A stretch of DNA of 32,307 nucleotides, taken from IMG/VR virus record IMGVR_UViG_2711768067_000015, one strand, 5' to 3'. The number at the start of each line of letters is the position of its first letter. The stretch's first letter is position 1. The translations under genes were made by a program, and so were the position numbers. The DNA is from a virus. Lineage: Duplodnaviria > Heunggongvirae > Uroviricota > Caudoviricetes. The notes beneath the pieces were generated by a model. It was not told the origin of the DNA. It did no database searches and saw only the letters and a list, made by a program, of their open reading frames with translations. Shown here one piece after another: positions 1-30,763 of this stretch.

Positions 1-573
1 GTGTTATCTTACTTAATAGCAATTCATTTTGTTTTACTTGGAAATTCTTCTGATTTAAAAAGCTTTTGGAAATCTGAAGTAATACGGCGAGAGCATATGA
101 ATATCTGGAGGCTTTTCAGAGAGAAAAAACAGCGTAACAGGAATTTCCTTTTCTGGTGGCGGCTGGCTAACGAAATGTATATTAATGGTAATAAATTACA
201 TAAGAAAGCTGCTAAAAAGTTAAACAATAAAATAATTAACAATTTTGGTTGCGAGATTGGACTGGGCGCAAAAATTGGAAAAGGGCTAACAATTCCCCAT
301 CACGCTGGAATTGTTGTTCATTTTGCTGTTGATGCTGGTGAAAATCTGGTGTTACGACAGAATACTACTATTGGACAGATAGATGGTGACATACCTGGTT
401 CAAGAGTAAAAATTGGTAGTAACGTTGATATCGGAGCTAATTGTTGCATCATTGGATTATCACGTAAAATTGGGGATAATGTAAAAATAGGCGCAATGTC
501 TTTTATAAATAAAGATATACCATCGAACTGCACATATATAACTAAAAAGAACGGTGTTGTTTTGTATAAATAG
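1..573 (+). CDS. Hexapeptide-repeat (left-handed beta-helix) acyltransferase, CysE/WcaB-like; may be 5'-partial at the window edge or start at the ATG at 97
   Basis: ORF-track translation shows tandem hexapeptide motifs (GAKIGKG, IGSNVDIGANCCI, IGDNVKIGAMSFI) typical of serine/sugar O-acetyltransferases. Codon 1 is GTG and the frame is open to the window edge. Sequence is visibly AT-rich compared with the neighbouring phage genes. Confidence 0.7.
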   Translation: MLSYLIAIHFVLLGNSSDLKSFWKSEVIRREHMNIWRLFREKKQRNRNFLFWWRLANEMYINGNKLHKKAAKKLNNKIINNFGCEIGLGAKIGKGLTIPHHAGIVVHFAVDAGENLVLRQNTTIGQIDGDIPGSRVKIGSNVDIGANCCIIGLSRKIGDNVKIGAMSFINKDIPSNCTYITKKNGVVLYK

Positions 574-580
574 AGCACAT

Positions 581-619
581 AAAGCCATCGATATTTCTAT
601 CGATGGCTTTTTCTTTTTA
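581..619 (+). terminator. Rho-independent terminator downstream of the acyltransferase gene
   Basis: Inverted repeat aaagccatcgat / atcgatggcttt with a 6-nt loop, immediately followed by a T-rich tract (ttttctttttatt) on the plus strand. Confidence 0.55.
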
Positions 620-1195
620 TTGTGGGGCGACTGGCCACTCAATATCCGCTGCTACTGTTGTATCAACACGATTCAACAATACCCGATATGTCTTCCATGC
701 AGCCAGTAACGATGCCTCTTCCTCCGTCGCAATATCCAAATCTACGGCATCCTGAAGTGGCGCAATATGCTCACTGGCTACCTGCATCAGGCTGTTTTTT
801 GTTTCTTCCGCCTCCTGGATCCGGAACAGTTTTTCTGCTTCTGCATCTTTCACCCAGGATGTACCGTTCCACTTCTGAAACTCCCCTTCCGGGGATAACC
901 AGGTGACATTTTCCGGTAATGGGCCAAGTTCAGAAATAAATAACGCGTCGCCAGAAGCCACGTCATAGACGGTTTTACCCCGATGGTCTTCAACGAGATG
1001 CCACGATGCCTCATCAGTGTTGAAAACAGCCACGAAGCCAGCCGGAATATCTGGCGGTACAATATCGGTACTGTTTGCAGGCAGACCTGTATGAGGTGGA
1101 ATGTATGCATCACCTTCACCAATAAATTCATTAGTTCCGGCCAGCAGATTATAAATTTTTATGGTCTGTGGTTGTTCACTCATTCTGAATGCCAT
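617..1195 (-). CDS. tfa: Tail fibre assembly protein (Tfa-like chaperone)
   Basis: 192-aa ORF directly downstream of the tail fibre gene with overlapping stop/start. N-terminal sequence [34 protein letters not shown] matches my recollection of enterobacterial prophage Tfa proteins. Confidence 0.85.
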
Positions 1196-2307
1196 TATGC
1201 GAGCCTCACAATATAGTTAAATGCGATGTTTTTGACGGTGTTTTCCGCGTTACCAGCAGCGTTAACGGTGATGGTGTGTCCATGTGAACCAATCGCAACG
1301 GAGTGCGTGTGTGCACCAATACCGACAGTGTGCTGATGAAAACCAATACCTACAGTATGAGAATGTGAGCCAGAGGAACCTGTTGTTGCTGATGTATATT
1401 GAGTTGCCAGACGCCCAGATGTCAGTGGAATTTTCCCCCCCTGGTTTGCACCATCTGATGTTGGTATTGAATGCGTGTGACTCCCGGCGTTACTGGTAGT
1501 TTTGGTCCCATAGTCAAATAGTGAGGTTGTTTTCGTCCCGTAATCAAACGACGATGTGGTTTTCGTACCCAAATCCGTACTGGATACGCTGGCGCTGTGG
1601 GTGTGCGATTTAATGCCGTCCTGTTCCTGAGACAATACGGCACGACCACTGGCGGGCTTGCCCTTAATCGTCCAGCCACGCATATCAGGGATCACGCCTG
1701 ACGGATAAGCAGCTGCAAGTTTCGGGTATGCAGACTTGTCAAAAGTCTGTCCCTGCATCAGAGCATAACCAGATGGAACTGTATCTGATGGCCACGGGAT
1801 CGGGGCACCTACAGGAAAGGTCGAATTATTTTCCAAACCAAGATATTTAAGGACATCAGCAACAGAGCTTTTTGCCAAAATATCTCGCCCAACCTGTGTC
1901 AGGTCAGCCAAATTAGCGGTATCTTGATTGGTAAAATACGGTAATTTGTTTTCGGATGCTGAAAGATTAGCAAGTGCGGTAAGTATGGCATTAATTCTCT
2001 GATAGTTCTTATCTAATGCAGACGACATTTTTGCGATAAAGCCGGCCTGATCGCCATCGTCCTGTACATCCAGTCCACTTTCATTTGCTGTATATTGTGC
2101 TATTGCAGATGCAATAAAGCTGGCCTGCCGAATAGCCTTGTTGACTTGCGCGCTGGATGCTTTCCCTGCTGTAAATCCTGATAAAAGCGCAGGCAACGCT
2201 TCCCATTCATCCTGCGACATAACATTGGCATTTTTACCCGTTGCAAACGCTTTAAAGTCATTTTTCGCCATCAGAGTAATACTCCCCATGCCCCTACATC
2301 AAAACCA
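866..2307. repeat. Direct repeat copy 1 (about 1.44 kb) spanning the 5' part of tfa and the whole tail fibre gene; identical to 3176..4617
   Basis: ORF-track proteins from three frames are identical between the copies at a constant offset of 2310 bp (1195..2289 vs 3505..4599; 983..1216 vs 3293..3526; 1284..1499 vs 3594..3809; 1422..1679 vs 3732..3989). Borders were read directly from the sequence. Confidence 0.9.
1195..2289 (-). CDS. Tail fibre protein, copy 1 (364 aa, His-rich HxH repeats in the C-terminal tip)
   Basis: Follows the gp48-like baseplate gene and precedes tfa. C-terminus carries [28 protein letters not shown] motifs typical of enterobacterial phage fibre tips. Confidence 0.85.
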
Positions 2308-2362
2308 ACCAGCAGATTATAAATTTTTATGGTCCGTGGTTGTTCACTCATTCTGAATGCCA

Positions 2363-3505
2363 TTATGCAAGCCTCACAATATAGTTAAATGCGATGTTTT
2401 TGACGGTGTTTTCCGCGTTACCAGCAGCGTTAACGGTGATGGTGTGTCCATGTGAACCAATCGCAACGGAGTGCGTATGAGCACCAATACCGACAGTATG
2501 CGCGTGTGCACCTGCAGATGCTGCTGTGCCGGACAGTGAGTGGCTATGATTACCATCTGTACTGGTATTAGCTAACCACCCCGTAGACATACCTACTGAA
2601 CCTTGTACACCCCAGGTATTTTGACCTGAGCTTGTATAACCATATTGATAAGTATCTTTAAAAACACTGGGGTTAAATCGACGGCCATCTCTATGGCTGT
2701 GATTACCAGCTGCATTCGTGCTGCCACTTAAACTATGAGTATGCGCACCAGTGTTATTCGTGGATTTAGTGCCGTAATCAAACGATGATGTGGTTTTCGT
2801 ACCCAAATCCGTACTGGATACGCTGGCGCTGTGGGTGTGCGATTTAATGCCGTCCTGTTCCTGAGACAATACGGCACGACCACTGGCGGGCTTGCCCTTA
2901 ATCGTCCAGCCACGCATATCAGGGATCACGCCTGACGGATAAGCGGCCGCAAGTTTCGGGTAAGCAGATTTGTCAAAAGTCTGCCCCTGCATCAGGGCAT
3001 AACCAGACGGAACGGTATCTGATGGCCACGGGATTGGTGCGCCGACTGGGTAGCTTTCTGGTGGAAGATTTTTCGAGGTATAAACTTCTGCCCAGTCTTC
3101 CTCAAAACCATAACCGTCTCTTGAAGAACGGTAGAACAGACCACCATTTCTGTAATGCGCCTTCATCTGCAAACCGTTCCACTTCTGAAACTCCCCTTCC
3201 GGGGATAACCAGGTGACATTTTCCGGTAATGGGCCAAGTTCAGAAATAAATAACGCGTCGCCAGAAGCCACGTCATAGACGGTTTTACCCCGATGGTCTT
3301 CAACGAGATGCCACGATGCCTCATCAGTGTTGAAAACAGCCACGAAGCCAGCCGGAATATCTGGCGGTACAATATCGGTACTGTTTGCAGGCAGACCTGT
3401 ATGAGGTGGAATGTATGCATCACCTTCACCAATAAATTCATTAGTTCCGGCCAGCAGATTATAAATTTTTATGGTCTGTGGTTGTTCACTCATTCTGAAT
3501 GCCAT
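2363..3505 (-). CDS. Chimeric ORF: Tfa N-terminal 110 aa fused in frame, via a 41-aa linker, to an alternative tail fibre C-terminal tip cassette
   Basis: First 110 aa are identical to Tfa (617..1195). The C-terminal part aligns with the fibre tip but has a divergent central segment (about 2480..2770), flanked by stretches identical or near-identical to the fibre gene. Whether it is expressed is unknown. Confidence 0.55.
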
Positions 3506-4617
3506 TATGCGAGCCTCACAATATAGTTAAATGCGATGTTTTTGACGGTGTTTTCCGCGTTACCAGCAGCGTTAACGGTGATGGTGTGTCCATGTGAACC
3601 AATCGCAACGGAGTGCGTGTGTGCACCAATACCGACAGTGTGCTGATGAAAACCAATACCTACAGTATGAGAATGTGAGCCAGAGGAACCTGTTGTTGCT
3701 GATGTATATTGAGTTGCCAGACGCCCAGATGTCAGTGGAATTTTCCCCCCCTGGTTTGCACCATCTGATGTTGGTATTGAATGCGTGTGACTCCCGGCGT
3801 TACTGGTAGTTTTGGTCCCATAGTCAAATAGTGAGGTTGTTTTCGTCCCGTAATCAAACGACGATGTGGTTTTCGTACCCAAATCCGTACTGGATACGCT
3901 GGCGCTGTGGGTGTGCGATTTAATGCCGTCCTGTTCCTGAGACAATACGGCACGACCACTGGCGGGCTTGCCCTTAATCGTCCAGCCACGCATATCAGGG
4001 ATCACGCCTGACGGATAAGCAGCTGCAAGTTTCGGGTATGCAGACTTGTCAAAAGTCTGTCCCTGCATCAGAGCATAACCAGATGGAACTGTATCTGATG
4101 GCCACGGGATCGGGGCACCTACAGGAAAGGTCGAATTATTTTCCAAACCAAGATATTTAAGGACATCAGCAACAGAGCTTTTTGCCAAAATATCTCGCCC
4201 AACCTGTGTCAGGTCAGCCAAATTAGCGGTATCTTGATTGGTAAAATACGGTAATTTGTTTTCGGATGCTGAAAGATTAGCAAGTGCGGTAAGTATGGCA
4301 TTAATTCTCTGATAGTTCTTATCTAATGCAGACGACATTTTTGCGATAAAGCCGGCCTGATCGCCATCGTCCTGTACATCCAGTCCACTTTCATTTGCTG
4401 TATATTGTGCTATTGCAGATGCAATAAAGCTGGCCTGCCGAATAGCCTTGTTGACTTGCGCGCTGGATGCTTTCCCTGCTGTAAATCCTGATAAAAGCGC
4501 AGGCAACGCTTCCCATTCATCCTGCGACATAACATTGGCATTTTTACCCGTTGCAAACGCTTTAAAGTCATTTTTCGCCATCAGAGTAATACTCCCCATG
4601 CCCCTACATCAAAACCA
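3176..4617. repeat. Direct repeat copy 2 (identical to 866..2307)
   Basis: Same evidence as copy 1. To the right it continues into the unique gp48-like gene. Confidence 0.9.
3505..4599 (-). CDS. Tail fibre protein, copy 2 (identical to copy 1)
   Basis: Protein is identical to 1195..2289. The start overlaps the stop of the gp48-like gene, which is the native context. Confidence 0.85.
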
Positions 4618-5261
4618 CTGATAAATTCGTTATCCATATCAAAACCAAAAAATTTTGAGCCTTCCGATGGGGTTTCCACCGAAGGTGTTTCAATGCCACC
4701 CGCCCACACACCGGCGGCTTTTACTGTGAGATATCCCTGTTTAATTGCAGCAATTAACTCACGCGATACATCTGAAATATCATTATCGGGAAAGACCCAG
4801 ACCGATATCGTCATGTCCTGGTTATCGACTATCTGCATTCGCAGCCCGGATCCTGCTGTTGCCGCGTCAAGAATTGCCGGAAGCGAATCATTCCGTCCGT
4901 CCCAGTTATTAATCGCAATCTTCGCTTTAAGAATGACACGATAAGTTTCATCGCTGAGATACATGTATCCAGAATCAGGATCATATGGCCCCTGCCATAC
5001 CCCCTGATCATATCCAAGCCCGTCGGTATCCCAGCTGAAATAGACACCTGAGATAGGCTGGCTGACAACACGGCTACGTCCGATCCACAATCCCAGAATG
5101 TCAAGTTGCACACCAACCGCAGAGTCAATATCAAATGCAGTAATCAGCCCTCTGGTGGCCGCCGCAACATCAATAAGCGGCCGGGTCATCAGATCAACAT
5201 GTGCAAGAAATTTAGGTTTGGTGGCGTGGTAGTTCGTGATTAGTTCGGTGTATTTGCTCAT
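4581..5261 (-). CDS. Baseplate/tail protein, Mu gp48-like (by position and size)
   Basis: 226-aa ORF between the baseplate J-like gene and the tail fibre gene, with ATGA start/stop overlap to the upstream gene. Confidence 0.7.
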
Positions 5262-6457
5262 GACTCCACCGTTATAACGATATTTTCCGGGGTACAGTAC
5301 GCAGATTCGTTGTATCTGATATCAATGTTTGATGACGAAAAAGCCCCCGGGGATTTCCCAATCGTCAGTTCCTGAATATCGTAATAGCGTGCATTCCCGC
5401 CACTCACCACGCCAAGATTCGCCGGTGAGTAAATGCGACTTAAAAGGACCGAATCACCAATCATCAGACTATTGATATAGTCGGAAATAGCCTGCTGGAT
5501 CTGCTGCCCTATCTGTGAGGTATAACCCGTAAAAACTTTTAATTTAATCCGGGCATAAACAGGCACATCACTGGAACGCGAGAATTTGATTACATGGGGA
5601 TTGCCGTATTTATCCGGCACCGTAACGGATGTTGTACCGTGAGTGGCTGTCCCCTGACCTTTATTCCCTCTGATAGCCTGAGCAATATCCGTCACATCAC
5701 CACCATCCACAATTACAGCAACAGAGTGTGGCGGTAACCCGTTACCGTCCTCCGAACCAGTATCGTTTTCATAGAGTTTGTGGCGGGTTACACCGGTGAC
5801 ATTAGAAACAGCACCATCCAGTGCTTCAAATGGGGTTATTGATGGCAACGCAACACTTTGCGACTGGCGGATACGTAACTCCGCATCAGTTTCTGCCGGA
5901 GTGCCCACAGTGGCTGCAGCAGGATTGGTTACCGAAACCCAGCCACGGGTTGGCGTATTAATTTCAGTGATAGTTCCAGCCAGCGCCGCCACTGCGCCAC
6001 TGACGGAACATGTTGCGGTCACCATCACTGTACCATCCACGCCTACCACCACTGAAGCAGGCAAACGCCATATCACATTATTACTGTCTTTCACGCTGCC
6101 ATTAATGATGGTTGTTCCGGCAGTTCCTGTAAGAAGCAAATCAACCGTAGAGTTCGTCGCGCCTTTACGTGAAATACCATTTATTTTCACGTTACTGGTC
6201 AGTGCAGCCCCATAGCCGGTTGCCGGTGAAAAACAGTTGTAGACAGTTATCGCCGTATTATTGGCATCATGAATCGCCAGCGCCATCAGAGCCACCATCT
6301 GGCCGTCTTTGCTGTCCGGTTCGAGGTAGGCATCACTGCCATAAATCTGCTGAAAATAGCTAATCAGGGTGCTGAGTATCGTCTGATAATCAGGCGCACT
6401 GATCCCCTCCGCGGTTACCTTTGCAGATAAACCGAGAGAATCAAGGTTCAGAGCCAT
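5258..6457 (-). CDS. Baseplate J-like protein (Mu gp47-like)
   Basis: 399-aa ORF in the baseplate gene string. Size and position match baseplate wedge J-family proteins. Confidence 0.7.
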   Translation of the reverse strand: MALNLDSLGLSAKVTAEGISAPDYQTILSTLISYFQQIYGSDAYLEPDSKDGQMVALMALAIHDANNTAITVYNCFSPATGYGAALTSNVKINGISRKGATNSTVDLLLTGTAGTTIINGSVKDSNNVIWRLPASVVVGVDGTVMVTATCSVSGAVAALAGTITEINTPTRGWVSVTNPAAATVGTPAETDAELRIRQSQSVALPSITPFEALDGAVSNVTGVTRHKLYENDTGSEDGNGLPPHSVAVIVDGGDVTDIAQAIRGNKGQGTATHGTTSVTVPDKYGNPHVIKFSRSSDVPVYARIKLKVFTGYTSQIGQQIQQAISDYINSLMIGDSVLLSRIYSPANLGVVSGGNARYYDIQELTIGKSPGAFSSSNIDIRYNESAYCTPENIVITVES

Positions 6458-6810
6458 TACGCCTCCGATGTAACAGTCGTTATTCCATAGAGAGTGTCGA
6501 TTTCAGCGGAAAACATGACACGTCGGGTCGTGGTATCCACCGTCGTATTGAAAGAGAGGATTGATTTAACGCCCCGCGTTTCGAGGATGCGCTTACGGAT
6601 CGCAAGATTGTAGGTTTCCGGCTTCTGCTTACCGAGTACGGACTGGATCCACGGAGTCCCCTCGGTGGTGTCGAGAAACCATTGCCCATACCACAATTCG
6701 AATCGCGTTTTTACCGCCTGCGCCACGGCCTCCGGTGAGTTAATCAGCCAGGTGTCATCACCGCTGCCAAAGGTGTAATCGCCATCGGCGTCTTCACGTC
6801 TGTATCGCAT
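6457..6810 (-). CDS. Small baseplate protein (GPW/gp25-like, Mu gp46-like)
   Basis: 117-aa ORF translationally coupled between the spike-like and J-like genes. Confidence 0.65.
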   Translation of the reverse strand: MRYRREDADGDYTFGSGDDTWLINSPEAVAQAVKTRFELWYGQWFLDTTEGTPWIQSVLGKQKPETYNLAIRKRILETRGVKSILSFNTTVDTTTRRVMFSAEIDTLYGITTVTSEA

Positions 6811-7562
6811 CAGTTTACCCCATCGGTATTGCTTCCACCGCGCTGAACACCGCCATGAGTGTGCGTATCATCGATTGGCTTGCCGTTAGCCTTAACGCTC
6901 CCCAAGAACTCAACAGCACCAGTGATTTTTGAAGCCACACCAGAAACAACAGACCCCACCATGCCCCCCATCCAGGTTAACAGGCCATGAATGGTTACTT
7001 TCTCAGAAAAATCAGCCAGAGGGGCAACCACATCAAGACCACCCGGGGCGACAATTTTAATTTTCCGGGTATCAGGATTAAGCTCAAAATAGGTGCTGCC
7101 GTCGTCACTACGCAACTGTGTGGCACTGATATTAATACCGCTAATCTTCCTCGCCTGCGACTGGGGACCGGCTATACAAAACGCATCCGATAAATCATGC
7201 ATTCTGTCATCGACCGGCTCCTGTATCCCACCGCTCTGCCACCAGAAATCAATACAACGATCGGCAAAAACGACAAGACACTCATCCCCGGCTTTAACCG
7301 GAAAAGTCAACGTACAGCCTCCGCCGCGCGGAAATACCACTGGCACATCCACCAGCAACGGGTAATTTTTGGTAATGCGGTTACCGTCGTTATCCTTTTC
7401 AACCGAACGGATAGCTGGCTGTACAACCGCCGTCACCGCGTCGGGATCGAATGACTGAACAATGCCAGGCAAGGCGACACGGATCTGGTTCTTTGTTGTT
7501 TCCCGTTCAGATTTGAATGTTTCGGCAAGGTCGCCGCTGCGGGTCTGGTCAGATACTGCCAT
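6810..7562 (-). CDS. Baseplate spike/assembly protein V-like (Mu gp45-like)
   Basis: ORF begins at the ATG at 7562 (MAVSDQTRSGD...) with a GGAGCC ribosome-binding site; the track's longer version uses a TTG. Size and position match phage baseplate spike proteins. Confidence 0.7.
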   Translation of the reverse strand: MAVSDQTRSGDLAETFKSERETTKNQIRVALPGIVQSFDPDAVTAVVQPAIRSVEKDNDGNRITKNYPLLVDVPVVFPRGGGCTLTFPVKAGDECLVVFADRCIDFWWQSGGIQEPVDDRMHDLSDAFCIAGPQSQARKISGINISATQLRSDDGSTYFELNPDTRKIKIVAPGGLDVVAPLADFSEKVTIHGLLTWMGGMVGSVVSGVASKITGAVEFLGSVKANGKPIDDTHTHGGVQRGGSNTDGVN

Positions 7563-7581
7563 TAAGTAGGCTCCAGAAAGC

Positions 7582-7606
7582 AAAAAACCCGCCGGGTGGC
7601 GGGTTC
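7582..7606 (-). terminator. Rho-independent terminator after the 79-aa membrane protein gene
   Basis: Minus-strand hairpin AACCCGCC-ACCC-GGCGGGTT followed by TTTTTTG, 16 nt downstream of the stop at 7622. Confidence 0.6.
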
Positions 7607-7621
7607 ATTATTGAAGTTTCA

Positions 7622-7861
7622 TTACTGCTTGTTTGCTTCTAACGCTTCAGCTATTCGGCGAAGATACTCATTGTTTTTAAATGAAACCATGATGCACTCA
7701 AAGAATATTCGGCAAAATACAGCACATAACAAAAGCACTAAAGCGCCAGCAGCCTTCCCATTAACAAACGTTATAATGGCGGCAACAACCAGAAGTAACA
7801 TTGTGATGCCATACAGAACGTTGATGATTTTTGGAGTTATTAATTTATCAAATCCGAACAT
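7622..7861 (-). CDS. Small membrane protein (79 aa, two predicted transmembrane helices); moron-like cargo gene
   Basis: Two hydrophobic stretches (ITMLLLVVAAIITFV and ALVLLLCAVFCRIFFECIMV). AAGGA ribosome-binding site, with its own promoter-like element upstream and a terminator downstream. Confidence 0.6.
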   Translation of the reverse strand: MFGFDKLITPKIINVLYGITMLLLVVAAIITFVNGKAAGALVLLLCAVFCRIFFECIMVSFKNNEYLRRIAEALEANKQ

Positions 7862-7897
7862 GCGACAAATTCCTTATCGTGAAAGTAGAAGTACCAC

Positions 7898-7925
7898 ATT
7901 ATAATTACGAGTGATTAATCAACAA
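7898..7925 (-). promoter_or_regulatory. Candidate sigma70 promoter for the 79-aa gene
   Basis: On the minus strand: TTGTTG (-35), a 16-nt spacer, then TATAAT (-10), ending about 36 nt upstream of the ATG at 7861. Confidence 0.4.
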
Positions 7926-8256
7926 TCTTTTTGCATGGAAAGGAACCGATGATTTTCGGCGCATCCATGCTGTTCTGCAGCAGTTGGACATTCAGGAATC
8001 GCGTTTCGGTACCAGGGCGACGAATGTATTCAAAGCCGTAGTTGTTACCGTCTTTGGCAGGCATAAGCCCCATGTCTACTTTCAAACCATTGGTACCCAG
8101 TTCGGTGATTTTTTGAGAGGTAACTCTTTCACCGTTGATTGTCGATAACTCGCCCTGGTTTGCAACCATAGTGTAGCCACCGCATTTAACCGTGAAGCCA
8201 TCCGCCCACGCGCTGCACGCAGAAAAGACAGCTAACAGAAAAATAATACCCCTCAT
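7915..8256 (-). CDS. Secreted or lipoprotein-type small protein (113 aa) of unknown function
   Basis: N-terminal signal peptide MRGIIFLLAVFSACSAWA with an AWA/DG signal peptidase I motif (or possible FSAC lipobox). Two Cys in the mature part. Starts 4 nt after the upstream 353-aa gene. Confidence 0.65.
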   Translation of the reverse strand: MRGIIFLLAVFSACSAWADGFTVKCGGYTMVANQGELSTINGERVTSQKITELGTNGLKVDMGLMPAKDGNNYGFEYIRRPGTETRFLNVQLLQNSMDAPKIIGSFPCKKIVD

Positions 8257-8259
8257 TGC

Positions 8260-9321
8260 TCATCCCCTTTGCAAAGCCGATTGCGTATACAGATCCGCCG
8301 CGCCACGCGCTTCGCACATCATATCCATGTACCACGCCTGGCCTCTTGTATCGCCACTGTACATAATCCCGCGCACAATATAAACGCCATCCGTTGCGAT
8401 GCTGGCAGGCTGCGATGTGGTGCCGCTGAGCGTGATATTTCCGTCCGTGTTCTGGTCGGTGATCTGACCACCAGCCATCGCAATATCGTTGTTCGACAAC
8501 GCGGTACGATAGACGGAAGCCTGATCCAGCTGAATGAGCCCGTTAACCCGGATGTTCGGATTAATAAGAGCGCGGACGTTTACGCCGTTGCCGATGGTCT
8601 GCTGCGGCATGCCAATAAGCCCGGTAGCACTGTTGAGCACAATCGCTTCGTGAACATATTCATTAGTCGCCACCATCTGGCGCTGACCGTCCACGAATTG
8701 CCATGTTGCGCCACATTGCCCGGCTACATTATCCATAAGATGCCGCGTCATGCCAAAGAGTACCCGCCCCCGGGGGAATACAGTAGCAGGCATTTCAGGC
8801 GTCAGGCCTTCGGTCGCGCCTTTGTCTTCGAAGTCTTTCATCAGCGCACGGTTCACATCAGCGACTGTGTAACCGGCAGCCAGCGTCTGTGAGGTTATAC
8901 TGGTGGCAAAAGCCAGATCTGTATCGGCTGCCTGAATCAGGACGTAGGAATCAACCGGACTGTCTTTTCCTGTGACCGAGTAGCGAATTTCACCGCTGAA
9001 AATCAGTCCGTAGTTGCGGCCATCACTCTGGCCCACGTCCGCCGCATCAACCTCCCGCACGATCCCGACGTCGCTTGCCGACACCTCCGGCGCGATACCG
9101 TCGTAACCCGCCATCAGACGCACTTTCGAAAACTCCTGTCCGGTAATTCGGTTCACAGTATCTGCCGAGAGGTTATAAATTTTGATAGTCCCTACCCGGG
9201 ACGCGCTGCTGATGTTGAACCAGTCGATCGTAAAGGTGACTTTGAAATCACTTAGCTCAATTCCCTGACCGTTCCCGTCCACAAGCTGCAGCTCGAAATG
9301 TCTCATCCAGTTCTGTGACAT
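8260..9321 (-). CDS. Tail/baseplate protein (353 aa), possibly hub-like
   Basis: Long ORF in the tail gene string between tape measure and the baseplate genes. Function inferred from position only. Confidence 0.6.
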   Translation of the reverse strand: MSQNWMRHFELQLVDGNGQGIELSDFKVTFTIDWFNISSASRVGTIKIYNLSADTVNRITGQEFSKVRLMAGYDGIAPEVSASDVGIVREVDAADVGQSDGRNYGLIFSGEIRYSVTGKDSPVDSYVLIQAADTDLAFATSITSQTLAAGYTVADVNRALMKDFEDKGATEGLTPEMPATVFPRGRVLFGMTRHLMDNVAGQCGATWQFVDGQRQMVATNEYVHEAIVLNSATGLIGMPQQTIGNGVNVRALINPNIRVNGLIQLDQASVYRTALSNNDIAMAGGQITDQNTDGNITLSGTTSQPASIATDGVYIVRGIMYSGDTRGQAWYMDMMCEARGAADLYTQSALQRG

Positions 9322-16535: not shown

Positions 16536-17477
16536 TTAAATGCCATCAACGTACGAAATGGTTTCTTTGTACACTGGCTCGACTGCACCCAGCTTGCCGT
16601 AGTAAGTGACGATCTGATACAGACCGCGATACTGCACCGGCACGCTCTGAAGCGGAACCAGCGGGTAGCGGACGTATTTTTTATCGTTGGTGTACGCAAC
16701 CATGCGATCCTTATTCCCCACACCACGGCCTTTCAGCCATTTCACCGCGCGGATATTCAGCGGAACACCGTTCTGGTGATAGCTGATGGTGTTGGTCTGA
16801 AGGTACGTCAACAGGGACTGGTTACCCGCAGATGAAACGATAATGCTGGACAACAGAGCAAACTGCTCAGGCGGGATCAGCAAATCACGCGGAACCACAG
16901 AGTAACCAGAAGCGGCCCACGCATCAGACAGCACCTGGTTAATGCTTGCGCGGATTTCGTCCGGTGTTGAGGTTGCCCACGTTTTGGCAGCGTTGTTGGC
17001 AGGCACGCCGTCCAGGGTAACAAGGCCTTTCAGGTTTAATGCTGAATCGCCAACATATACCTGTTCATCGTTATCCATCTGCCATTTCAGTTGCATACCG
17101 TCATACTTCTGCGTATCAATCGGGCGGCCGACCTGCTGAGCAGCCTGCAATTCTATGACCGTCCAGCCAAGTTCCATCCCCCACAGGTTCAGCGGGTTAC
17201 CGGATTTGCCGATATCCACGTTCACGCCAGCAATAGCGGTTGAGTCTTTGCCTACCCAGTTTTTTCCATTCGGATTTGCGCCAGTACCCGCAGCGGCGAA
17301 GCTGGTATTCGTCCAGCTGGAAATGTCATCTGCGATGGAGACGTCTTCACGCAGTTGAATATCGCGGCTCCAGGTGTACCCCACCAGTGGCAGGTTCAGC
17401 GTCTGGTCGAGTCGCTCCAGCTCCCCGATGAGAAAGGCACCAGAGCTGTCAACGGTTGCCTGATCAAAAGTAATCAT
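16536..17477 (-). CDS. Major capsid protein
   Basis: 313-aa ORF following the scaffold-like genes and preceding the neck genes. A GC-rich hairpin lies just downstream of its stop. Confidence 0.7.
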   Translation of the reverse strand: MITFDQATVDSSGAFLIGELERLDQTLNLPLVGYTWSRDIQLREDVSIADDISSWTNTSFAAAGTGANPNGKNWVGKDSTAIAGVNVDIGKSGNPLNLWGMELGWTVIELQAAQQVGRPIDTQKYDGMQLKWQMDNDEQVYVGDSALNLKGLVTLDGVPANNAAKTWATSTPDEIRASINQVLSDAWAASGYSVVPRDLLIPPEQFALLSSIIVSSAGNQSLLTYLQTNTISYHQNGVPLNIRAVKWLKGRGVGNKDRMVAYTNDKKYVRYPLVPLQSVPVQYRGLYQIVTYYGKLGAVEPVYKETISYVDGI

Positions 17478-17488
17478 TCGTCTGTTCC

Positions 17489-17995
17489 TTAAATCTTCCA
17501 GGAAATTTCTGCATTGCCGTCAGCATCACCGGCACCTGTGAATTCAGCGTTGGTCAGCACCACGTTTTTGCCACTGACTGACGTGGACATGAATCCACCC
17601 AGCGGCACTTTGATGGATTCATCAGTGGAGACGACAACGTATACCGGGTCGCCTTTTTTGATGGTGCTGGCATCAAAATCAGAACCGAGATTAACGGTCA
17701 CGTAGCCACGCTTCATGGCGTCGCCCGGGAAGTTCTTGCCACTCCCCACCTGGCGAACCATGTCCGGCTGCGAAGTGGTCGGATAAGGGCGCACGTAGAT
17801 CCCCTTCACCTTGTCTGCGGTATCACCATCTGCCAGAGGCACGAAAAAACCGTCATCATCGTATTTACCAGCCAGCCCATAGGCAGCAAAGGCGTTATCG
17901 GATTTAAGGACCACCGGTTCGACGGTTAAGTCCTGCGGGCGAGAGACAGCCCCGGCAATGCCAACAGGCATCCGGTACAGAAATACATTATTCAT
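17489..17995 (-). CDS. Head structural protein (decoration or scaffold-related), hypothetical
   Basis: 168-aa ORF between the scaffold-like and major capsid genes. Confidence 0.55.
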   Translation of the reverse strand: MNNVFLYRMPVGIAGAVSRPQDLTVEPVVLKSDNAFAAYGLAGKYDDDGFFVPLADGDTADKVKGIYVRPYPTTSQPDMVRQVGSGKNFPGDAMKRGYVTVNLGSDFDASTIKKGDPVYVVVSTDESIKVPLGGFMSTSVSGKNVVLTNAEFTGAGDADGNAEISWKI

Positions 17996-17998
17996 TTT

Positions 17999-19219
17999 TT
18001 ACCCTTTACGGTTTGCCCAGAATTCAGCGTTTTGTTTGTTCAGGGAAGCGATACTGGTCATGCCCATGTTTGGGCGCTGTGCATCGCCGGTGGTGGCGCG
18101 GGTGTTTAGCCCTTTGGCAATCTCAGACACGGCATTAAACGCCATGTCGACCGATTGTTTCGGTAATTTGCGGATATCCGCATCACCGACTATCTGGCGA
18201 ACCAGCGTTTTGTCAGCAGAAGCCAGAACCTCGCGTTTGAACGCGGTCGGTTTCATCTTACGGCTCAGATCGATACCCGGAACGATAACTTCGGCACGCC
18301 AGGCTGAGTCACCAGTAATCGTGGTTTCCTCTTCATCGTCCTCGCCGTCACCGGTCGGATTATCGTCAGGCTTATTGTCGTTATCGCCCGTCGCATTTCC
18401 TTCCAGCTTAGCCAGCAGGGCTTTCAGTAATGTTTTGAGGTCATCATCACTGTCGCCGGTTGGACCTCCGCCCATCTCTGGTGCTTTGTCCGGTAGCGGT
18501 TGCTGCGGGGACAGGTTGATGTTGAGATTAACGCCCTGCGGCAAATCCCCCTCATCTCCTGTAACCGATGCGGGAGCCGACTCCACCAGTTCGTTCATGG
18601 TGTCAGCGTCACCCGTTTTGATGGCCGTGCGCATGCGGGTCCACCAGCTTTTCTTTTGATTTGCCATTGTGTCTCTGTCTCCAATTGCACAACGATTTCC
18701 GGCTCTGCCTTTAGGGACAAGAGCCACATGGTTTCCGGTAATATCAACCTGCTCAGCCTTACCCGGCTCAGTCTGCTTATATTCCGCGTCATAGCCACAC
18801 GACACTTCGCGCAGGCCATCTTCGATCAGCTGAATGGCGTTTTCGTCTTTGACGATAAGGTCAGCCAGCATCAAATCAGACTGCACACCCGTCCCGCGCC
18901 GGACATTCTGAAGATGCCCGACCGCGAGCTCTTTCCAGTTCTCTGGATTCACCAGCCGCACATCCCCGTTTTCATCCTCGGGATGCAACACCGTGATACT
19001 CATTCCTTCGAATGAGGCAAGCGTGGCGGGATGGAATACCTGCTCAGGAGAACGCGTGACGACTATTTCACCGAACTTATCGGGTTTCAGTTTTGGCAGG
19101 TCATCAGCACCATAGAGCTGCTTACCTGTTCGTCCTATCGGCACGTCTTTGCACAGCAACGAGCCGTCAGCCAGCTGATAGCGGGTTTCCCCCAGCCGGG
19201 TATTGAAAAAATATTTCAT
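17999..19219 (-). CDS. Scaffold/prohead core-like protein (acidic, Gly/Asp-rich central region)
   Basis: 406-aa ORF upstream of the capsid gene with a highly acidic, low-complexity segment (GDSDDDLK...DDEEETT) typical of scaffolding proteins. Confidence 0.6.
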   Translation of the reverse strand: MKYFFNTRLGETRYQLADGSLLCKDVPIGRTGKQLYGADDLPKLKPDKFGEIVVTRSPEQVFHPATLASFEGMSITVLHPEDENGDVRLVNPENWKELAVGHLQNVRRGTGVQSDLMLADLIVKDENAIQLIEDGLREVSCGYDAEYKQTEPGKAEQVDITGNHVALVPKGRAGNRCAIGDRDTMANQKKSWWTRMRTAIKTGDADTMNELVESAPASVTGDEGDLPQGVNLNINLSPQQPLPDKAPEMGGGPTGDSDDDLKTLLKALLAKLEGNATGDNDNKPDDNPTGDGEDDEEETTITGDSAWRAEVIVPGIDLSRKMKPTAFKREVLASADKTLVRQIVGDADIRKLPKQSVDMAFNAVSEIAKGLNTRATTGDAQRPNMGMTSIASLNKQNAEFWANRKG

Positions 19220-19233
19220 GTGTTACCTGCGAT

Positions 19234-20007
19234 TCAGGCGGGGTAAGAATGGGAGGTGGGAAAAACAATTTCTTTATAACAGCGACAATTCGGGAACTCG
19301 CCAGCGTGACCTGTCATGCCGTCAAGCGTTGGAGGTTTGCCCCATTCGACAAATTTACCTTCCATTTCCCGATGAGAATGCCTGACATCACCATCTTCGG
19401 CTGTACGCCAGATATAACCATTCGAACCAATTGCCAGCGCACGCGCCTGATCCAGCGCGCCGGTTGCACGTCCAAGTTCAGTACGGGCAATCAGGTCAGC
19501 TCTGGACTTTGCTATATCACCCGATGCAGCTATTTCTTTAGCAAAATGTTCCGCTCTCCCACCGGTGACAACAGCTTCTATCGCCCGATTCTGGATGTCG
19601 TACACCCTGTCAGCCGCCTCGAGGGGTAGCGATTTGATGTACTTAACCTGTTCAGCAACGATGGATTTCATCACCTGCCCTGGAGGGGCACTGTTTACCA
19701 GATTGCGTAGCTCACGGCTGATGGTTTTGCTGTGTTTACGCCACTGCTCATCATTCTTGCGCACAATGTCGGCGGTAAAGTTTTCCGCGACCTTTGTCGC
19801 CCAGGGGGTGATGATTTCACTGTAGCGTTCCAGCGCCTCAATAATTTCCGTGATACTGTCATTTGAACCATCGTAGCGACCATTTACGATGTCTCCGACC
19901 GCCCGCGCTATCCTGCGTAGGCTGGTTCGATACCGGATTTCCGCCTGACGGTTCCTGCGGTTCGTCATCAGGTTCGCCGATGCCGGGCGGCGCTTCGTCT
20001 TCGGCAT
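19234..20007 (-). CDS. Head morphogenesis protein (Mu F-like / minor capsid)
   Basis: 257-aa ORF downstream of portal. Start is uncertain; the ORF overlaps the portal 3' end by about 149 nt in another frame. Confidence 0.6.
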   Translation of the reverse strand: MPKTKRRPASANLMTNRRNRQAEIRYRTSLRRIARAVGDIVNGRYDGSNDSITEIIEALERYSEIITPWATKVAENFTADIVRKNDEQWRKHSKTISRELRNLVNSAPPGQVMKSIVAEQVKYIKSLPLEAADRVYDIQNRAIEAVVTGGRAEHFAKEIAASGDIAKSRADLIARTELGRATGALDQARALAIGSNGYIWRTAEDGDVRHSHREMEGKFVEWGKPPTLDGMTGHAGEFPNCRCYKEIVFPTSHSYPA

Positions 20008-21325
20008 TCTCTATGTCCTCGTCGGTAATGGATGCCCCGATGCCGGTTACGTCAGAATTTTCGCGCAAATCAGTCATAGCGGCTTTCAGTGTCATCAGAC
20101 CATCACCCAGCGCTGTACTGATTGCGTTGGTGGTATTTAACGCCACCGTTGAACGATCGACATCAGACATTTGCCAGAGCGGGTTAAACTCAAACGTGAA
20201 ATCATCCGGGAGCGGCTTGCCAAGTTCCGAACGATGCATGATGTCCAGTATCCGCCGCACCGGAAGACGTAAACGCCTCTCCTGCAACGAGCTTACCCGG
20301 TCGTAATAGTTGGCAAGGTCTGCATCGCCGGTAGAAAATCCTTTCGGGGACTGTCCGAACAACCGCACCAGTGGGATACCAACAGCGCCACTAATCTGTT
20401 CTGCAAACTGTGATAGGATGTCATCCAGACCACTGAAGCTGTACTGATGCGTTTCAAACTTATCCCGCGAGTCCATGAGCGTCATGCCTTCATTGCTCTG
20501 GAACTGTCGAATCAGGTCGATATTCTTCAGCAACGCTTCATACGCAGGACCACCAAGTGCGATAAGCTCGCGTAGCTTCTCCACGCTGTAGGTACGCAAA
20601 TGCGCCTTGTAGACCAGCTGCGCCGCGCCGACAGTAGCGCTGTCGAACGCGGTAAGACGATCCCAGATACGCTCTACAACCGACATTCCCCATTCGTTCT
20701 CGGTCATCTTCTGCTGAAATGGCAGCGTGACGCCATCAAAGCGAATCAGGCGACTGTGATGAATGCGCCAGGCAGGAATTCCCGTTGCTGTGGTCACCAC
20801 ATCGTAAAACTCAGGTTTACCCAGGTCCGGCCCCATATCTTTAATGCGGCGGGTCAGTACCGGGTCGATCATCCAGCGGTCGAGCGGGAGAATCCCCTTA
20901 AACTTGCCCTTACCGATGGTTTCGGGTCGCAGCGGGGTCATTGGTGCCTGCCCCTCAATCATGATGAAACCCACCGCGCCGCCGTAGAGGCGCGACCATT
21001 TCAGCACGTCGTTCAGCGCATCCCAGATTTGCAACTCATCCAGTTGTGATTCGAGAATACCACGATCTTTTGCATCAATTTCCGACGTGATGCGAATGCC
21101 TTTGCGGGTCATATCATCCGGGATAGCATCGACCGCTTCGCCGATGATCCAGGACGAACGATAGGACCATTCCACCAGCATGCGGTTACGACTGGTGAAA
21201 TTAGCCCGGTAGGTGGATGCTGAGTGCTGGTTAGGTGTCTGCATCCCTACGCGGGCAATAAAATTCTCATAACCATCAGCTGTGGCCTGCGCAGTTCGCC
21301 GCAGGGCTTGTTTGTTTCGTGCCAT
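19859..21325 (-). CDS. Portal protein
   Basis: 488-aa ORF immediately downstream of large terminase (start/stop overlap at 21325), with an acidic C-terminal tail. Confidence 0.8.
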   Translation of the reverse strand: MARNKQALRRTAQATADGYENFIARVGMQTPNQHSASTYRANFTSRNRMLVEWSYRSSWIIGEAVDAIPDDMTRKGIRITSEIDAKDRGILESQLDELQIWDALNDVLKWSRLYGGAVGFIMIEGQAPMTPLRPETIGKGKFKGILPLDRWMIDPVLTRRIKDMGPDLGKPEFYDVVTTATGIPAWRIHHSRLIRFDGVTLPFQQKMTENEWGMSVVERIWDRLTAFDSATVGAAQLVYKAHLRTYSVEKLRELIALGGPAYEALLKNIDLIRQFQSNEGMTLMDSRDKFETHQYSFSGLDDILSQFAEQISGAVGIPLVRLFGQSPKGFSTGDADLANYYDRVSSLQERRLRLPVRRILDIMHRSELGKPLPDDFTFEFNPLWQMSDVDRSTVALNTTNAISTALGDGLMTLKAAMTDLRENSDVTGIGASITDEDIENAEDEAPPGIGEPDDEPQEPSGGNPVSNQPTQDSAGGRRHRKWSLRWFK

Positions 21326-22947
21326 CAGGCCTGTCTCCCTAGCAGCTCCCAGATGTTCAGGGCTGAATTCATTGGGGCATAGTTGATCATCACCGAGTCG
21401 GCAAGGTTTGGCGACCGGGTTCCATCAGGCTGTTTATCAATAACGATTTTTCCCACACCATTAATGGAATAGGTCGGCTGCGAAAGCTCGATGATGAGTT
21501 TATCTTTGAGTGCCATGCTACTGCTGATTGAGATGATTTCGTCCGGGTTGTAAGCCATACCTTCAACCACGGCGCGCCAGGTATTCTGAAAAAGTTTACG
21601 TAACCGCCACCAGCTCTGGGCTTTGGCGTTAGCGAAGAAGTCCTTGTTCAGACGTGCGGCTTGCCCGTTGTCCCCGCGAACAGCTTCATCATCCGGATCA
21701 AATACCGCGCCACTACCTCGAAACGGTGTGGCGAGTATTGACGGTCGGCGCGCAGCGTTACGCAGTTCGTTGATAGCGCGTGCATCGCCGCGAACGCCAG
21801 CGCCCAGCCCGTCCTCATCAAAGCGAAACTCTTCGAGGTTGTCCTGTTCGCAAAAACCGAAGACCTTCTCGACGGACTGATAAATGTCGCTGCCCACACC
21901 AGACCATTCCCGCACATTTTCCAGGAGGAAGCCATGACGGGTGGAAAAGGCATTTTTGTCCCTGCCTTCGTCGGCGACATCCATCGCGCCAAGTCGTTTG
22001 CCTGTTGGCTGGATCCCCAGTTTGATATGCGCATCAACGGCAGCCTGTACCCATTCGGATGGAATCAGGACGCCTTCCGCTGATGCGCTGTAGTTCAGAT
22101 CAAGTTCCTGTGCCACCACCACCGGATTATCGATTTTCTCGCATTCCCTGCGATACCACTCTTCATCCTTGCGAGGATCATCCCGCCAGTGGAATGTGAA
22201 TACCGGTATCTTCCCGCCATGACGCTTCTGAGCGAACGGGTTCGCCATGCCATTAACTGAACTCAGGTCAATACGGCAACGCGTCGTTTGTGACAACGCC
22301 GCATCAATCAGCAGAGGACGCTGAAGGAATGCAGCCTCATCAACCAGATAAAGCGTGGTACGGTCACCACGACCAATATTATCGCCAGCCTCGCCTTTGA
22401 TAACGGCACCAGTTTCAGGAAACTCAACACGCATATATGGCGCGTGCTTCTTCTCGCTCCACGAACCGCGAAACTCTACAGGTAGTGTTTCCACGAACTT
22501 GCGCGCCTTCCAGAACAATGCTTTCGGGTCACCGGTGCTGTCGACGTATTCCTCTTTACGGGAGCCGAAACCGATAACCATTTCTTTGTTGAAGAGACAA
22601 AGCGAGCAGGCCAGTCCGATCGCGGTCCAACTGAGCCCCATTTCACGGGATTTTTCGGTAATACCATTCTCCCGATTACCCCAGCGTTCCATAATCCAGT
22701 GGATCCACTCCTCCTGCTTAGGGAAGAGTAAAAACGGTATGGTCACCGGCAGGCCATAATCAATATTACGCGGGTCCGTTGTCATGCCCCAGTCGATGAT
22801 GAACTGAGCCGGATTGGTTCGGTAAAACTGTTTTAGTGCAGGCAATATTTCAGGATTCTGGCGAATGCGCTGTAGGCGTTCCATCCGCCATTCAAAAACC
22901 ATCTGGTAATCAGGATGTTTAAAATCGAAGGGGAATGGTAACGGCAT
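21325..22947 (-). CDS. Terminase large subunit
   Basis: 540-aa ORF with an ATPase Walker B-like motif ([10 protein letters not shown]) and C-terminal nuclease-like region, between small terminase and portal. Confidence 0.85.
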
Positions 22948-22949
22948 AC

Positions 22950-23501
22950 TTAGCCCATCATTTTTCTATACGCCTCTGCAGCCTGCTCCGGCGTTAAGTT
23001 GGTAATTTCTGTTCTGACTGGTCCTCCGTCAGCACCAGTCACTTCATTTTTGACGTTGTCTTTAAACGCCTGAACAGAAACATGACGCCCAAGCAACTCA
23101 AGGTTTTTAACCTTATCAGGCCATTTGATTTTCTTCAGAAGTGCGGCGCTATCTGCGGATACCATCTCCACGACATCCATTCCTGATAGCGTTGTGCGCC
23201 ATACCTTAGGCCAGTCTTTAATGGGCTTTAGCTCACCGTTTTGCAGGAGAATGTCGAGCACATCCATCTGGTCGATTTCAATAAGGCGATTAAGTACATA
23301 TTCTGCATTAATCCCAACAAGATCATTGCGTTGCGCTTTCAGTTCGGCGATTCTTAACTTGATGTCAGGTTTTGACAGGTTTTCGGATGCGGTACGGTTA
23401 GCTGTCTTTGCGCTGTACCCCGCCCGAATAGCCGCTTGCGTGGCGTTTAAATCGATGAGGTACTCGCGACAGAACATTTCTTGCTTGTCGGTGAGTGCCA
23501 T
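22950..23501 (-). CDS. Terminase small subunit
   Basis: 183-aa ORF immediately upstream of large terminase with an N-terminal helix-turn-helix-like region. Confidence 0.75.
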
Positions 23502-23523
23502 AAATTACCTTTAAGGATTTCAC

Positions 23524-23742
23524 ATGAGTGATGAATACAAACAGAAAATCGGCATTCCAGATGACCATACACTGGAGCTTGTCTCTTCTAACTGGAAAGG
23601 AGCTCGAAAAGGTCAGGATACCGATGAATACCTTTACCGTGAGTTGGACGCTGCGGGAAATGTAGTGGCCACTTATGAAATTAAAGATTCAACTTCTATA
23701 TATCCACCATTCGGAAGATCTATCTCTTATAAGAAGGTCTAA
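23524..23742 (+). CDS. Hypothetical small protein (72 aa), divergent from the terminase operon
   Basis: ORF with an AAGGA ribosome-binding site 7 nt upstream of the ATG. It is the only plus-strand ORF in this stretch that does not overlap a minus-strand gene. Confidence 0.5.
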   Translation: MSDEYKQKIGIPDDHTLELVSSNWKGARKGQDTDEYLYRELDAAGNVVATYEIKDSTSIYPPFGRSISYKKV

Positions 23743-24078
23743 GCAACCAACTGACCAGCATGGCATTTCCGATTGAACATTTACACGTCCAGGATAATGC
23801 CATGTCTATTCCACAGTTCTATCGTCACCTACCGATATTGGCGTGAACTACACGCACTTGACATCAGCAGGAGCGAAGTACGCCCCCCTCCCGTCTAGGT
23901 CGCCAGCGGCACAAAGCCATTAACCAGCTCAGGCTGACGTCGTGACATCTTGCCCGTTTACTCGCCGCCGTCGTTCGTATTCAGTTTGATGATGTAGATG
24001 TCGGACATTGAGAGCCTCTTTATCCGCTTGTGGGGATATCAGTTAAGTTATCCCGTGTAGGGTATAAGCCATTATCAA

Positions 24079-24104
24079 AGCCATTCTGCAAGGAATGGCT
24101 TTTG
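24079..24104 (+). terminator. Rho-independent terminator-like hairpin (plus strand)
   Basis: Stem AGCCATTC / GAATGGCT (8 bp), loop TGCAAG, followed by TTTTGTG. Confidence 0.45.
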
Positions 24105-24132
24105 TGATGGCAATAAAAACAGCCGCAGGAGG

Positions 24133-24381
24133 TTAGATTAAGTCTTCACGTTTTACATATTCATCGATGTGATAAAGATGCATAAACTTTTCATCATGCC
24201 CACCAAATATCTGTGTTATCGATTCGTCATCCCGGCCTTCAACAATTAAATGCTTTTCATGTGTTCCCGGCATAAATAACGCCTTTACAACATGTTCTAA
24301 GTGGTGTTTGAACTGTATGTGAAGCTCTCTTTCATCCTCAAAAGGAATATTTTCGGTAAGTTCAAAATAACGAAATGCCAT
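24133..24381 (-). CDS. Hypothetical small acidic protein (82 aa) between the lysis and packaging modules
   Basis: ORF with a GGGAGG ribosome-binding site. A perfect 12-bp palindrome lies about 45 bp upstream. Confidence 0.6.
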   Translation of the reverse strand: MAFRYFELTENIPFEDERELHIQFKHHLEHVVKALFMPGTHEKHLIVEGRDDESITQIFGGHDEKFMHLYHIDEYVKREDLI

Positions 24382-24632
24382 ATCTACCTCCCGTATAATG
24401 AGAGCTCATCATTAATGAATTTTCTTGTCATGACAATGACAAATTATTTCAGGTTCCATTAGATATAGCTTTGTAATGAACAGGCACTTATCTCAACGCA
24501 GCCCCTTACCGCGCGCCAGATGCTCAACTTCAAGCATCAGCAATGAGATGTTTAATCTGGATTCACTCCAGAAGTAATCACCACCCTGTCTACAGAGCCA
24601 GATGTGAAGAATGATGAGTAAAATTATCGCTA

Positions 24633-25100
24633 TCATCGAAGGCATTGCATCCTGATGTATTCCTGAAGCGCTCTCAGTGCTGTTTGGTCGCGGATAATTC
24701 CGTCCCGGATACCGAGAACGTTTCGTCCAGCAACTGGAGAGAGTTCGACGGAGGCATCATTGCCCATGCCGGAGGCGCTGGAGGTTTCGGCTGAGGATGG
24801 CACAGGGCATTTTCCTTTGACGAGCACCCTGCCACCATTATCAAGCTTGCGCCGAAGAGCATCATTTTCAGCTTTCGCATCAGCTAACTCCTTCGTGTAT
24901 TTAGCATCGAGTGCATCAGCATCACGCTGGCGCTGCTGCATGTCAGTAATGGTGGCGTTCGCCTTCTCCAGTTCACTGGCCTTGTTATCGCGCTGCTCTT
25001 TGTAGGCGATTGCGTTATCACGGTAATGATTAACAGCCAATGACAGGCAGACGATGATGCAGATAACCAGAGCGGAGATAATCGCGGTTAACCGACTCAT
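24633..25100 (-). CDS. Rz: i-spanin Rz
   Basis: From the internal start [19 protein letters not shown]... there is an N-terminal transmembrane helix, then a coiled-coil-like charged region. Rz1 is embedded in the +1 frame. The track's longer ORF starts at 25229. Confidence 0.75.
24674..24880 (-). CDS. Rz1: o-spanin Rz1 (lipoprotein embedded within Rz)
   Basis: 68-aa ORF entirely inside Rz in another frame, with lipobox LIMVAGC and a Pro-rich mature part ([11 protein letters not shown]). Confidence 0.75.
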
Positions 25101-25188
25101 GACATCAACACTCCAACGGCCAGAAACCACGGACACGCATCGTTGCCATTGAATGCGAGCAACGCTGCCATGAAAAAGCAAATCATGC

Positions 25189-25686: not shown

Positions 25687-25901
25687 TATTCACCTCTCGC
25701 AGCCTTTCTTCTGTCTTCTCTGATTTTGAAGTACAGATTTGTCAGATAAGTCAAAAAGCCCAGAACTAGACTTCCCAGCACACCAATTGCAGCCCACTGT
25801 GACGGACTGACCTGATCCAACCACTTTAAAAACCAGTATCCCGCACTACCAGCGGATGTTCCGTAGGCAATGCCAGTAGAGATTTTGTCCATTGATTTCA
25901 T
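25686..25901 (-). CDS. S: Pinholin (phage-21 S-type, class II holin)
   Basis: 71-aa ORF with a dual-start motif (MKSM), two transmembrane segments and a charged C-terminus; a near match to phage 21 S as I recall it. GGAGG ribosome-binding site upstream. Confidence 0.85.
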
Positions 25902-26019
25902 AGCAACGCCTCCGCAAGTAACGGATTGCGTAGTTCTTATATTGGGAAGGGAGAAAAAGAAGGCCGCAGCGTAACTATCACTGATGAGTTCAGGATAGCC
26001 AGTGGCTACAGCTCAGTTA

Positions 26020-26095: not shown

Positions 26096-26100
26096 ATATT

Positions 26101-28367: not shown

Positions 28368-30763
<2,396 letters not shown>

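Follow-up and report, generated by a model that had tools for sequence, protein, structure and literature searches.

The tail fibres of coliphages are known for their mosaicism. In the fibre systems of lambda (Stf/Tfa), P2 (H/G) and Mu (S/U), C-termini of the Collar type carry a variable, His-rich core between conserved flanks and are served by a Caudo_TAP chaperone, and the locus described here resembles them in all these respects. Tfa proteins are themselves modular, with a variable N-terminal domain that binds the fibre and a conserved C-terminal domain for oligomerisation (PMC9608196). Invertible cassettes form another well-described group: in the G segment of Mu (Gin), the C segment of P1 (Cin), the P segment of e14 (Pin) and the Min system of p15B, alternative tip and tfa sequences lie beside the expressed fibre gene, which is also the case here. 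The lambdoid stf-tfa loci of Escherichia coli, such as those of Rac, Qin and e14, are classically linked with pin genes.

Errors of assembly provide a further point of comparison. SSPACE and GapFiller, as applied in high-throughput Illumina pipelines, are greedy and, according to their authors, liable to false joins; scaffold joins are written as Ns and then extended over many iterations (PMC5320598), and the gaps that GapFiller leaves open are mainly in repeats, where extension meets alternatives at an equal ratio (PMC3446322).

The DNA analysed here (hereafter, the window) is a stretch of 32,307 nucleotides from a virus of the Caudoviricetes, IMG/VR record IMGVR_UViG_2711768067_000015. A preliminary description, made from the letters alone, singled out an open reading frame (ORF) of 380 codons as an in-frame chimera, in which the N-terminal domain of Tfa is fused to an alternative receptor-binding tip, and offered it either as a silent reservoir for host-range switching or as an expressed adhesin. 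We have compared this locus with its source record, with other assemblies of the same element and with tail fibre sequences at large. Our analyses indicate that the chimera most likely reflects an artefact of scaffold joining and is no real gene.

Results

Layout of the fibre locus

The genes between 600 and 5300 all lie on the minus strand and are laid out as pre-H-U-H-post, where H is a repeated segment and U the only unique part between its copies. Comparison of the window with itself at a period of 2310 gave H as an exact direct repeat of 1445 bp, 863-2307 being the same as 3173-4617 (100%, no mismatch). Each copy contains the last 34 nt before the stop of the DUF2612 gene, which overlaps the fibre start, the whole of fibre gene F and nucleotides 1-333 of tfa; the first reading had overlooked this exact duplication.

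At the upstream end stands a DUF2612/Phage_Wedge1 baseplate gene (4581..5261, minus strand, 226 aa; Pfam DUF2612, E=3.8e-47), which precedes the fibre in relatives too, and whose last 34 nt before the stop open copy A of the repeat (3173..4617, minus). Within copy A lies the resident tail fibre F (3505..4581, minus), 358 aa from MAKNDF with a Pfam Collar domain; the copy ends at junction J1 (3172), where tfa nucleotide 333 meets stf. Block U (2308..3172, minus) comprises 865 bp, namely the 3' 810 nt of an stf gene including its stop, followed by tfaQ nucleotides 1-56, and at junction J2 (2308) tfaQ nucleotide 56 abuts the 3' end of a DUF2612 gene. Copy B (863..2307, minus) contains the fibre a second time (1195..2271, minus), again as 358 aa and identical to the first, and is continuous with the remainder of tfa, which encodes a full-length Tfa of 192 aa (617..1195, minus; Pfam Caudo_TAP, E=2.1e-42, residues 72-192). 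A hexapeptide-repeat (serine) acetyltransferase moron of low GC (0.35) follows on the plus strand (1..573); in every relative it marks where the tail module ends.

Two ORFs cross the junctions. The first, of 380 aa (2363..3505, minus), spans J1 and joins Tfa residues 1-111 to the C-terminal 269 aa of Stf. The second, of 30 aa (2271..2363, minus), spans J2 and consists of TfaQ residues 1-18, a junction Val and the last 11 aa of the DUF2612 protein; it is annotated as a 30-aa gene in the deposit, and it ends on a TGA that overlaps the start codon of fibre copy B, as the DUF2612 gene does with its own fibre. The frame is kept open at J1 and at J2 alike, an outcome with a chance of about 1 in 9.

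Elsewhere in the window, moron-like genes of low GC (0.42) for a DUF4282 membrane protein and a 113-aa signal-peptide protein lie between baseplate genes (7622-8256, minus), and an element of the IS21 family (28810-30611, plus), with an IstA-like protein of 340 aa bearing an rve domain and an IstB-like protein of 260 aa, occupies the lambdoid nin region between P/ren-like genes and ninB. Relatives do not contain this element, as the gene tables of contig L025 show when set against those of L016 and L020.

The chimeric reading frame and its tip

An in-frame ORF of 380 aa does exist at 2363-3505 (minus) in the letters supplied, with a frame that rests on two bases given as N in the deposit. The identity of its start with Tfa (617-1195) was correctly described, although it extends over residues 1-111 and not 110. 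What had been called a unique linker of 41 aa (LQMKAHY...PPESY) is instead native Stf sequence, which precedes the tip in a large number of E. coli side tail fibres; over the full 270 aa, linker and tip together show 99-100% identity with numerous E. coli fibres of varied lengths. The flanks that the tip was said to share with the resident fibre are borne out, both on the N-terminal side (PVGAPIPW...SSFDYGTK) and over the last ~45 residues, as is the divergent His-rich core between them, which is encoded at about 2502-2764 (first given as about 2480..2770).

The product has the Collar domain (E=1.7e-12, residues 155-202) and the tip expected of a functional fibre. The region of fibre attachment is absent: Tfa 1-111 stands where F has its N-terminal ~150 aa and Stf its long shaft. 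Caudo_TAP (PF02413) is not present as a full domain, the match (23 bits) being confined to positions 1-53 of a profile of 131, compared with positions 1-131 and 145 bits for complete Tfa; this cut in the middle of the domain, at position 53 of 131, argues against a designed domain fusion. Among 5.8 billion proteins none covers more than 71% of the 380-aa ORF, and the Tfa-N::Stf-C fusion occurs in none of them. Exact-protein look-ups of the 380-aa and 30-aa products returned no record, as is to be expected when an ambiguous codon is present in the deposited products.

It is on this evidence that the proposed function must be judged, that is, a maintained element acting as a silent donor cassette for host-range switching or as an expressed adhesin docked through its Tfa N-terminus. 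Conserved flanks of 285 and 193 bp with 94-97% identity would permit recombination with the resident tip, Tfa proteins bind the fibre through their N-terminal domain (PMC9608196), and the same tip, to judge from comparison of relatives, would be functional there on a full-length fibre. Such a function nevertheless requires the arrangement to be real, and the arrangement is conserved in no other genome or contig; a single assembly can give no sign of selection, and both the missing attachment region of ~150 aa and the Caudo_TAP model broken off midway count against it. We consider a functional element of this kind highly improbable. The reservoir or adhesin first proposed is not upheld, given borders that are Ns, junctions without homology, occurrence in one draft assembly and sister elements of simple form.

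The source record and its ambiguous bases

The source of the window is the end of a draft E. coli contig, CYFS01000009.1 of assembly GCA_001286245.1, of which it represents the terminal 32.3 kb; the contig was deposited as a single sequence of 234 kb, and a literature search on accession GCA_001286245.1 found no paper. The right end of the window (32307) is 1 nt short of the contig end and lies in a replication region like lambda O/P, so that the left part of the prophage must be on another contig.

Window and source are identical over 16746-32307, and over 1-8271 they are identical except at positions 3172 and 2308, both of which are N in CYFS01000009.1 and T in the window. Position 3172 is the first base of block U and 2308 its last, and neither border of U is resolved in the deposit. 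These Ns, at deposit positions 5100 (J1) and 5964 (J2), are the only two in the 28.6 kb examined, and both stand at the borders of U. In the deposited contig codon 112 of the 380-aa ORF reads NTG, and the sequence does not establish a frame across J1. At J1 and J2 the contig has a scaffold or gap position in place of resolved sequence. It seems that ambiguous bases were swapped for T before the first-stage reading, a substitution that can create ORFs over joins of this kind; with the two Ns shown as T, continuous ORFs of 380 and 30 aa result across them.

Origin of the inserted block and nature of the junctions

In 864 of its 865 positions (99.9%) block U matches the stf-tfaQ locus that E. coli ACN001 has at the ydfJ (Qin) site, and the match stops exactly at both joins. 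The donor type is the 3' end of a gene for a lambdoid side tail fibre of 1176 aa together with the first 56 nt of tfaQ, whose ATG in U overlaps the stf stop by 1 nt. Microhomology between the parental sequences amounts to 0 nt at J1 and 0 nt at J2. The inserted block is, in other words, a copy of another type of locus, joined on both sides without homology.

Repeats common to the paralogues are close at hand. In the fibre/tfa region, exact matches of 158, 107, 33 and 26 nt occur between U and H, and tfa and tfaQ, 92% identical overall, have exact stretches of 58, 45, 35, 31 and 30 nt among others. Copy A of the repeat ends 1 nt past the 58-nt exact match between tfa and tfaQ. The N of J2 falls on a single-nucleotide difference at nucleotide 56 (C in tfa, T in tfaQ), between exact matches of 26 and 30 nt, and the base at the N of J1 is polymorphic among Stf copies, being T in ACN001 and C in K_EC180. 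Exact stretches of 158, 107 and 58 nt approach or exceed the usual lengths of k-mers and reads, and short-read assembly therefore breaks there.

Several other accounts of the junctions were considered and set aside. A mosaic boundary at tfa codon 111 was rejected, since the variant tfa alleles of contigs L003 and L007 show differences before and after nucleotide 333 alike. A site-specific hot spot where the former linker begins was rejected too, since the breakpoints of tip fusions in database proteins all differ. Microhomology-mediated template switching meets with no microhomology at J1 or J2, and survives only as part of the improbable reading in which the arrangement is real.

A remnant or variant of an invertase-driven switch of fibre tips, of the Gin, Cin, Pin or Min type, would account for an alternative tip and a 5' fragment of tfa that adjoin a fibre-tfa pair. 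Inversion leaves other traces, however: here all copies are direct, positions 1-6000 contain 0 inverted repeats, no recombinase gene stands beside the locus, in the window or in the source contig, and the parental sequences have nothing at the junctions that looks like a crossover site. Unlike the cassettes of Mu, P1, e14 and p15B, the locus combines direct orientation with duplication of a whole gene, and has neither an invertase nor inverted sites. We regard this explanation as having practically no chance of being correct. The gene tables of the source contig give acetyltransferases and tor genes downstream of the locus. Comparison of the junctions with gix, hix and cix half-sites yielded one AAACC-like motif at J1, which was discarded as a product of the join itself that is missing from both parents.

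Occurrence of the arrangement

The exact 358-aa sequence of fibre F was found on 11 contigs, among which the duplicated layout is confined to CYFS01000009.1 and the remainder have the simple order DUF2612-F-Tfa-acetyltransferase. Contigs L004 and L006 differ from the simple layout reconstructed for the window by 1 SNP in 8.2 kb, and L008, L009 and L010 show no mismatch to the window over the shorter spans that they cover. Contigs L003, L004 and L008 occupy the same tor-gene site as CYFS01000009.1. The arrangement is missing, then, from independent assemblies of the same element. One apparent second assembly with the arrangement, beside the source contig (L005 in our set), proved to be the second fibre copy of that same contig.

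Complete genomes gave the same picture. In the best relatives among 5,426 complete E. coli genomes the locus spans about 1.8 kb, which is the simple form, and no record in this set has U joined to both flanks. A probe of 160 nt for J2 was covered to 52% at best in these 5,426 genomes, the junction itself being absent, and the probe for J1 was contiguous in none of them. Eighteen genomes that seemed to contain J1 were dismissed, the halves of the probe being non-colinear there, in opposite order and 163 bp apart in a decayed prophage. That decayed prophage lies near tRNA-Ser/hya (hyaA) and is common to the 18 genomes, which are mostly of porcine E. coli. In its copy in E. coli K_EC180 (contig L070, 3748-4931), a truncated stf is followed directly by a tfa without its N-terminus.

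No phage record contains the duplicated arrangement. With N treated as a wildcard, a 30-mer across J1 had 0 matches in viral and metagenome collections, and one across J2 had 0 matches in viral and species-representative genome collections, compared with 4 and 37 matches in the viral collection for the parental contexts of the junctions.

These results also bear on the alternative that the event is real, namely a very recent duplication-insertion in one isolate, which would have copied 865 bp from the stf-tfaQ locus of a resident lambdoid prophage into the myovirus fibre operon, either by a template switch or illegitimate recombination or by integration of a 2.3-kb circle (H + U) in a single crossover, to give the order fibre, Tfa-N::Stf-C, 30-aa ORF, fibre, Tfa. 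The sequence was deposited as one contig of 234 kb, both junction frames are open, the mini-ORF keeps its TGATG overlap with the second fibre copy, and identical repeats with a sister prophage 1 SNP away suit a recent event as well as they suit an artefact. It tells against such an event that the deposit gives N at each of the two junctions, where a true adjacency would normally be merged without Ns (PMC3446322), that there is no microhomology at either junction, that the arrangement is seen in one assembly only, and that short-read evidence alone cannot span an exact repeat of 1445 bp. We judge a genuine rearrangement unlikely.

Exchange of the tip among related prophages

The other element of the initial proposal, that a divergent core between conserved flanks is the mark of an exchangeable receptor-binding tip, is sustained: together with its linker the tip is found on long lambdoid Stf proteins, and in other samples it is carried by the full-length fibre of 380 aa of this same prophage family of myovirus type. 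Two such fibres, P0108 and P0112, each of 380 aa, combine the N-terminal ~150 aa of F with the alternative tip; they follow the same baseplate and DUF2612 genes, precede a Tfa, and occur on at least 5 contigs. Comparison of the DNA places the crossover of the tip inside the conserved flank of ~285 bp in these short-fibre relatives. Through recombination in a conserved flank, the same His-rich tip moves between lambdoid Stf proteins and the short fibre of a contractile-tail prophage family. Natural exchange of this kind is a clean replacement by homologous recombination, with no duplication and no tfa fragment. The present locus differs in just these points from the natural recombinants of lambda Stf/Tfa, P2 H/G and Mu S/U, having the fibre gene duplicated and a fragment of tfa fused to the tip.

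In a metagenome scaffold from ENA (contig L028, 4001-9143), the alternative tip is carried by the fibre of a contractile-tail prophage and is followed by tfaQ and then by chromosomal ydfJ/ydfI, at the Qin site. This order suggests a crossover, at the shared fibre flank, between a prophage of myovirus type and a lambdoid remnant at the Qin site.

Fusions of the tip to unrelated phage N-termini were observed in many proteins of public databases (among them P0001, P0025, P0059, P0075, P0077, P0088, P0096 and P0114), the partners being a portal, a ClpP-like protease, ParB, Ash, Nu1, a tape measure and terminase GpA, with breakpoints that are all different. One of them, P0114 (GpA-N with the tip, 348 aa), is present on 480 contigs, a frequency that makes a genuine deletion scar of a cryptic prophage probable; singleton fusions may be additional chimeras of assembly.

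The gene that follows DUF2612 varies greatly in this family of contractile-tail prophages (contigs L011-L015), in which the upstream baseplate genes are conserved. Its variants include a Collar fibre (358 or 380 aa), Gly_rich_2 proteins (355-361 aa), a Gp53-like_C protein (242 aa) and others.

Discussion

That the chimera might be a product of assembly was named in the preliminary description as an outcome that would undo its proposal, and in our judgement this is, with good probability, what has occurred. The two Ns are fact; the mechanism of the false join we infer as follows. The true genome would have one fibre operon in a contractile-tailed prophage, in the order DUF2612, fibre F, Tfa and acetyltransferase, and elsewhere a lambdoid prophage in which an Stf with the alternative tip is followed by tfaQ. 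A greedy scaffolder would have put the stf/tfaQ contig, of ~863 bp, inside the fibre locus, and extension of the gap from both flanks would have re-read the same true sequence, leaving a perfect duplication of 1445 bp. A paralogous contig placed between pieces that are truly adjacent, with extension of the flanks, would produce exactly pre-H-N-U-N-H-post. If this is so, the true sequence upstream of U should be stf ...GTTGCCGGACC, and that downstream should be tfaQ from nucleotide 57 onward.

The layout agrees with errors of greedy scaffolding and gap filling by SSPACE and GapFiller, in which residual Ns mark the joins (PMC5320598, PMC3446322), as they do here, where each join was left as a single N in the deposit. 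As in such errors, a paralogous contig is set between truly adjacent sequence, the true flank is perfectly duplicated, and the joins lie in or beside repeats common to the paralogues; here the joins are blunt and without homology. The duplicated flank, at 1445 bp, is longer than in a typical gap-edge duplication.

Some observations weigh against an artefact. A duplicated flank of 1445 bp is long for a gap-edge duplication; both joins keep an open frame, and the 30-aa ORF retains the overlap of its TGA with the fibre start; and the absence of spanning reads is itself presumed. Were both junctions genuine, no path other than pre-H-U-H-post would use every edge once, and for that reason a correct assembly could look alike apart from the Ns. 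Real junctions would mean a duplication-insertion made in one step without homology, in which the fibre-binding Tfa domain of the fusion could dock a second tip on the resident fibre, a combination that we hold to be improbable. It would amount to a translationally coupled array of four genes (fibre, Tfa-N::Stf-tip fusion, 30-aa ORF and fibre), followed by Tfa.

An artefact of scaffold joining remains the reading that we prefer, and it carries a caution. An attractive ORF, in frame, domain-like and furnished with conserved flanks, here hangs on two Ns shown as T. Scans of draft genomes should retain or flag Ns, and an ORF that runs across one is best regarded as unproven. Paralogues of tail fibre and tfa genes, with their exact stretches of 100-160 nt, are typical places of false joins. 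The movement of the tip among these prophages, for its part, confirms the known mosaicism of tail fibres and is nothing new in kind.
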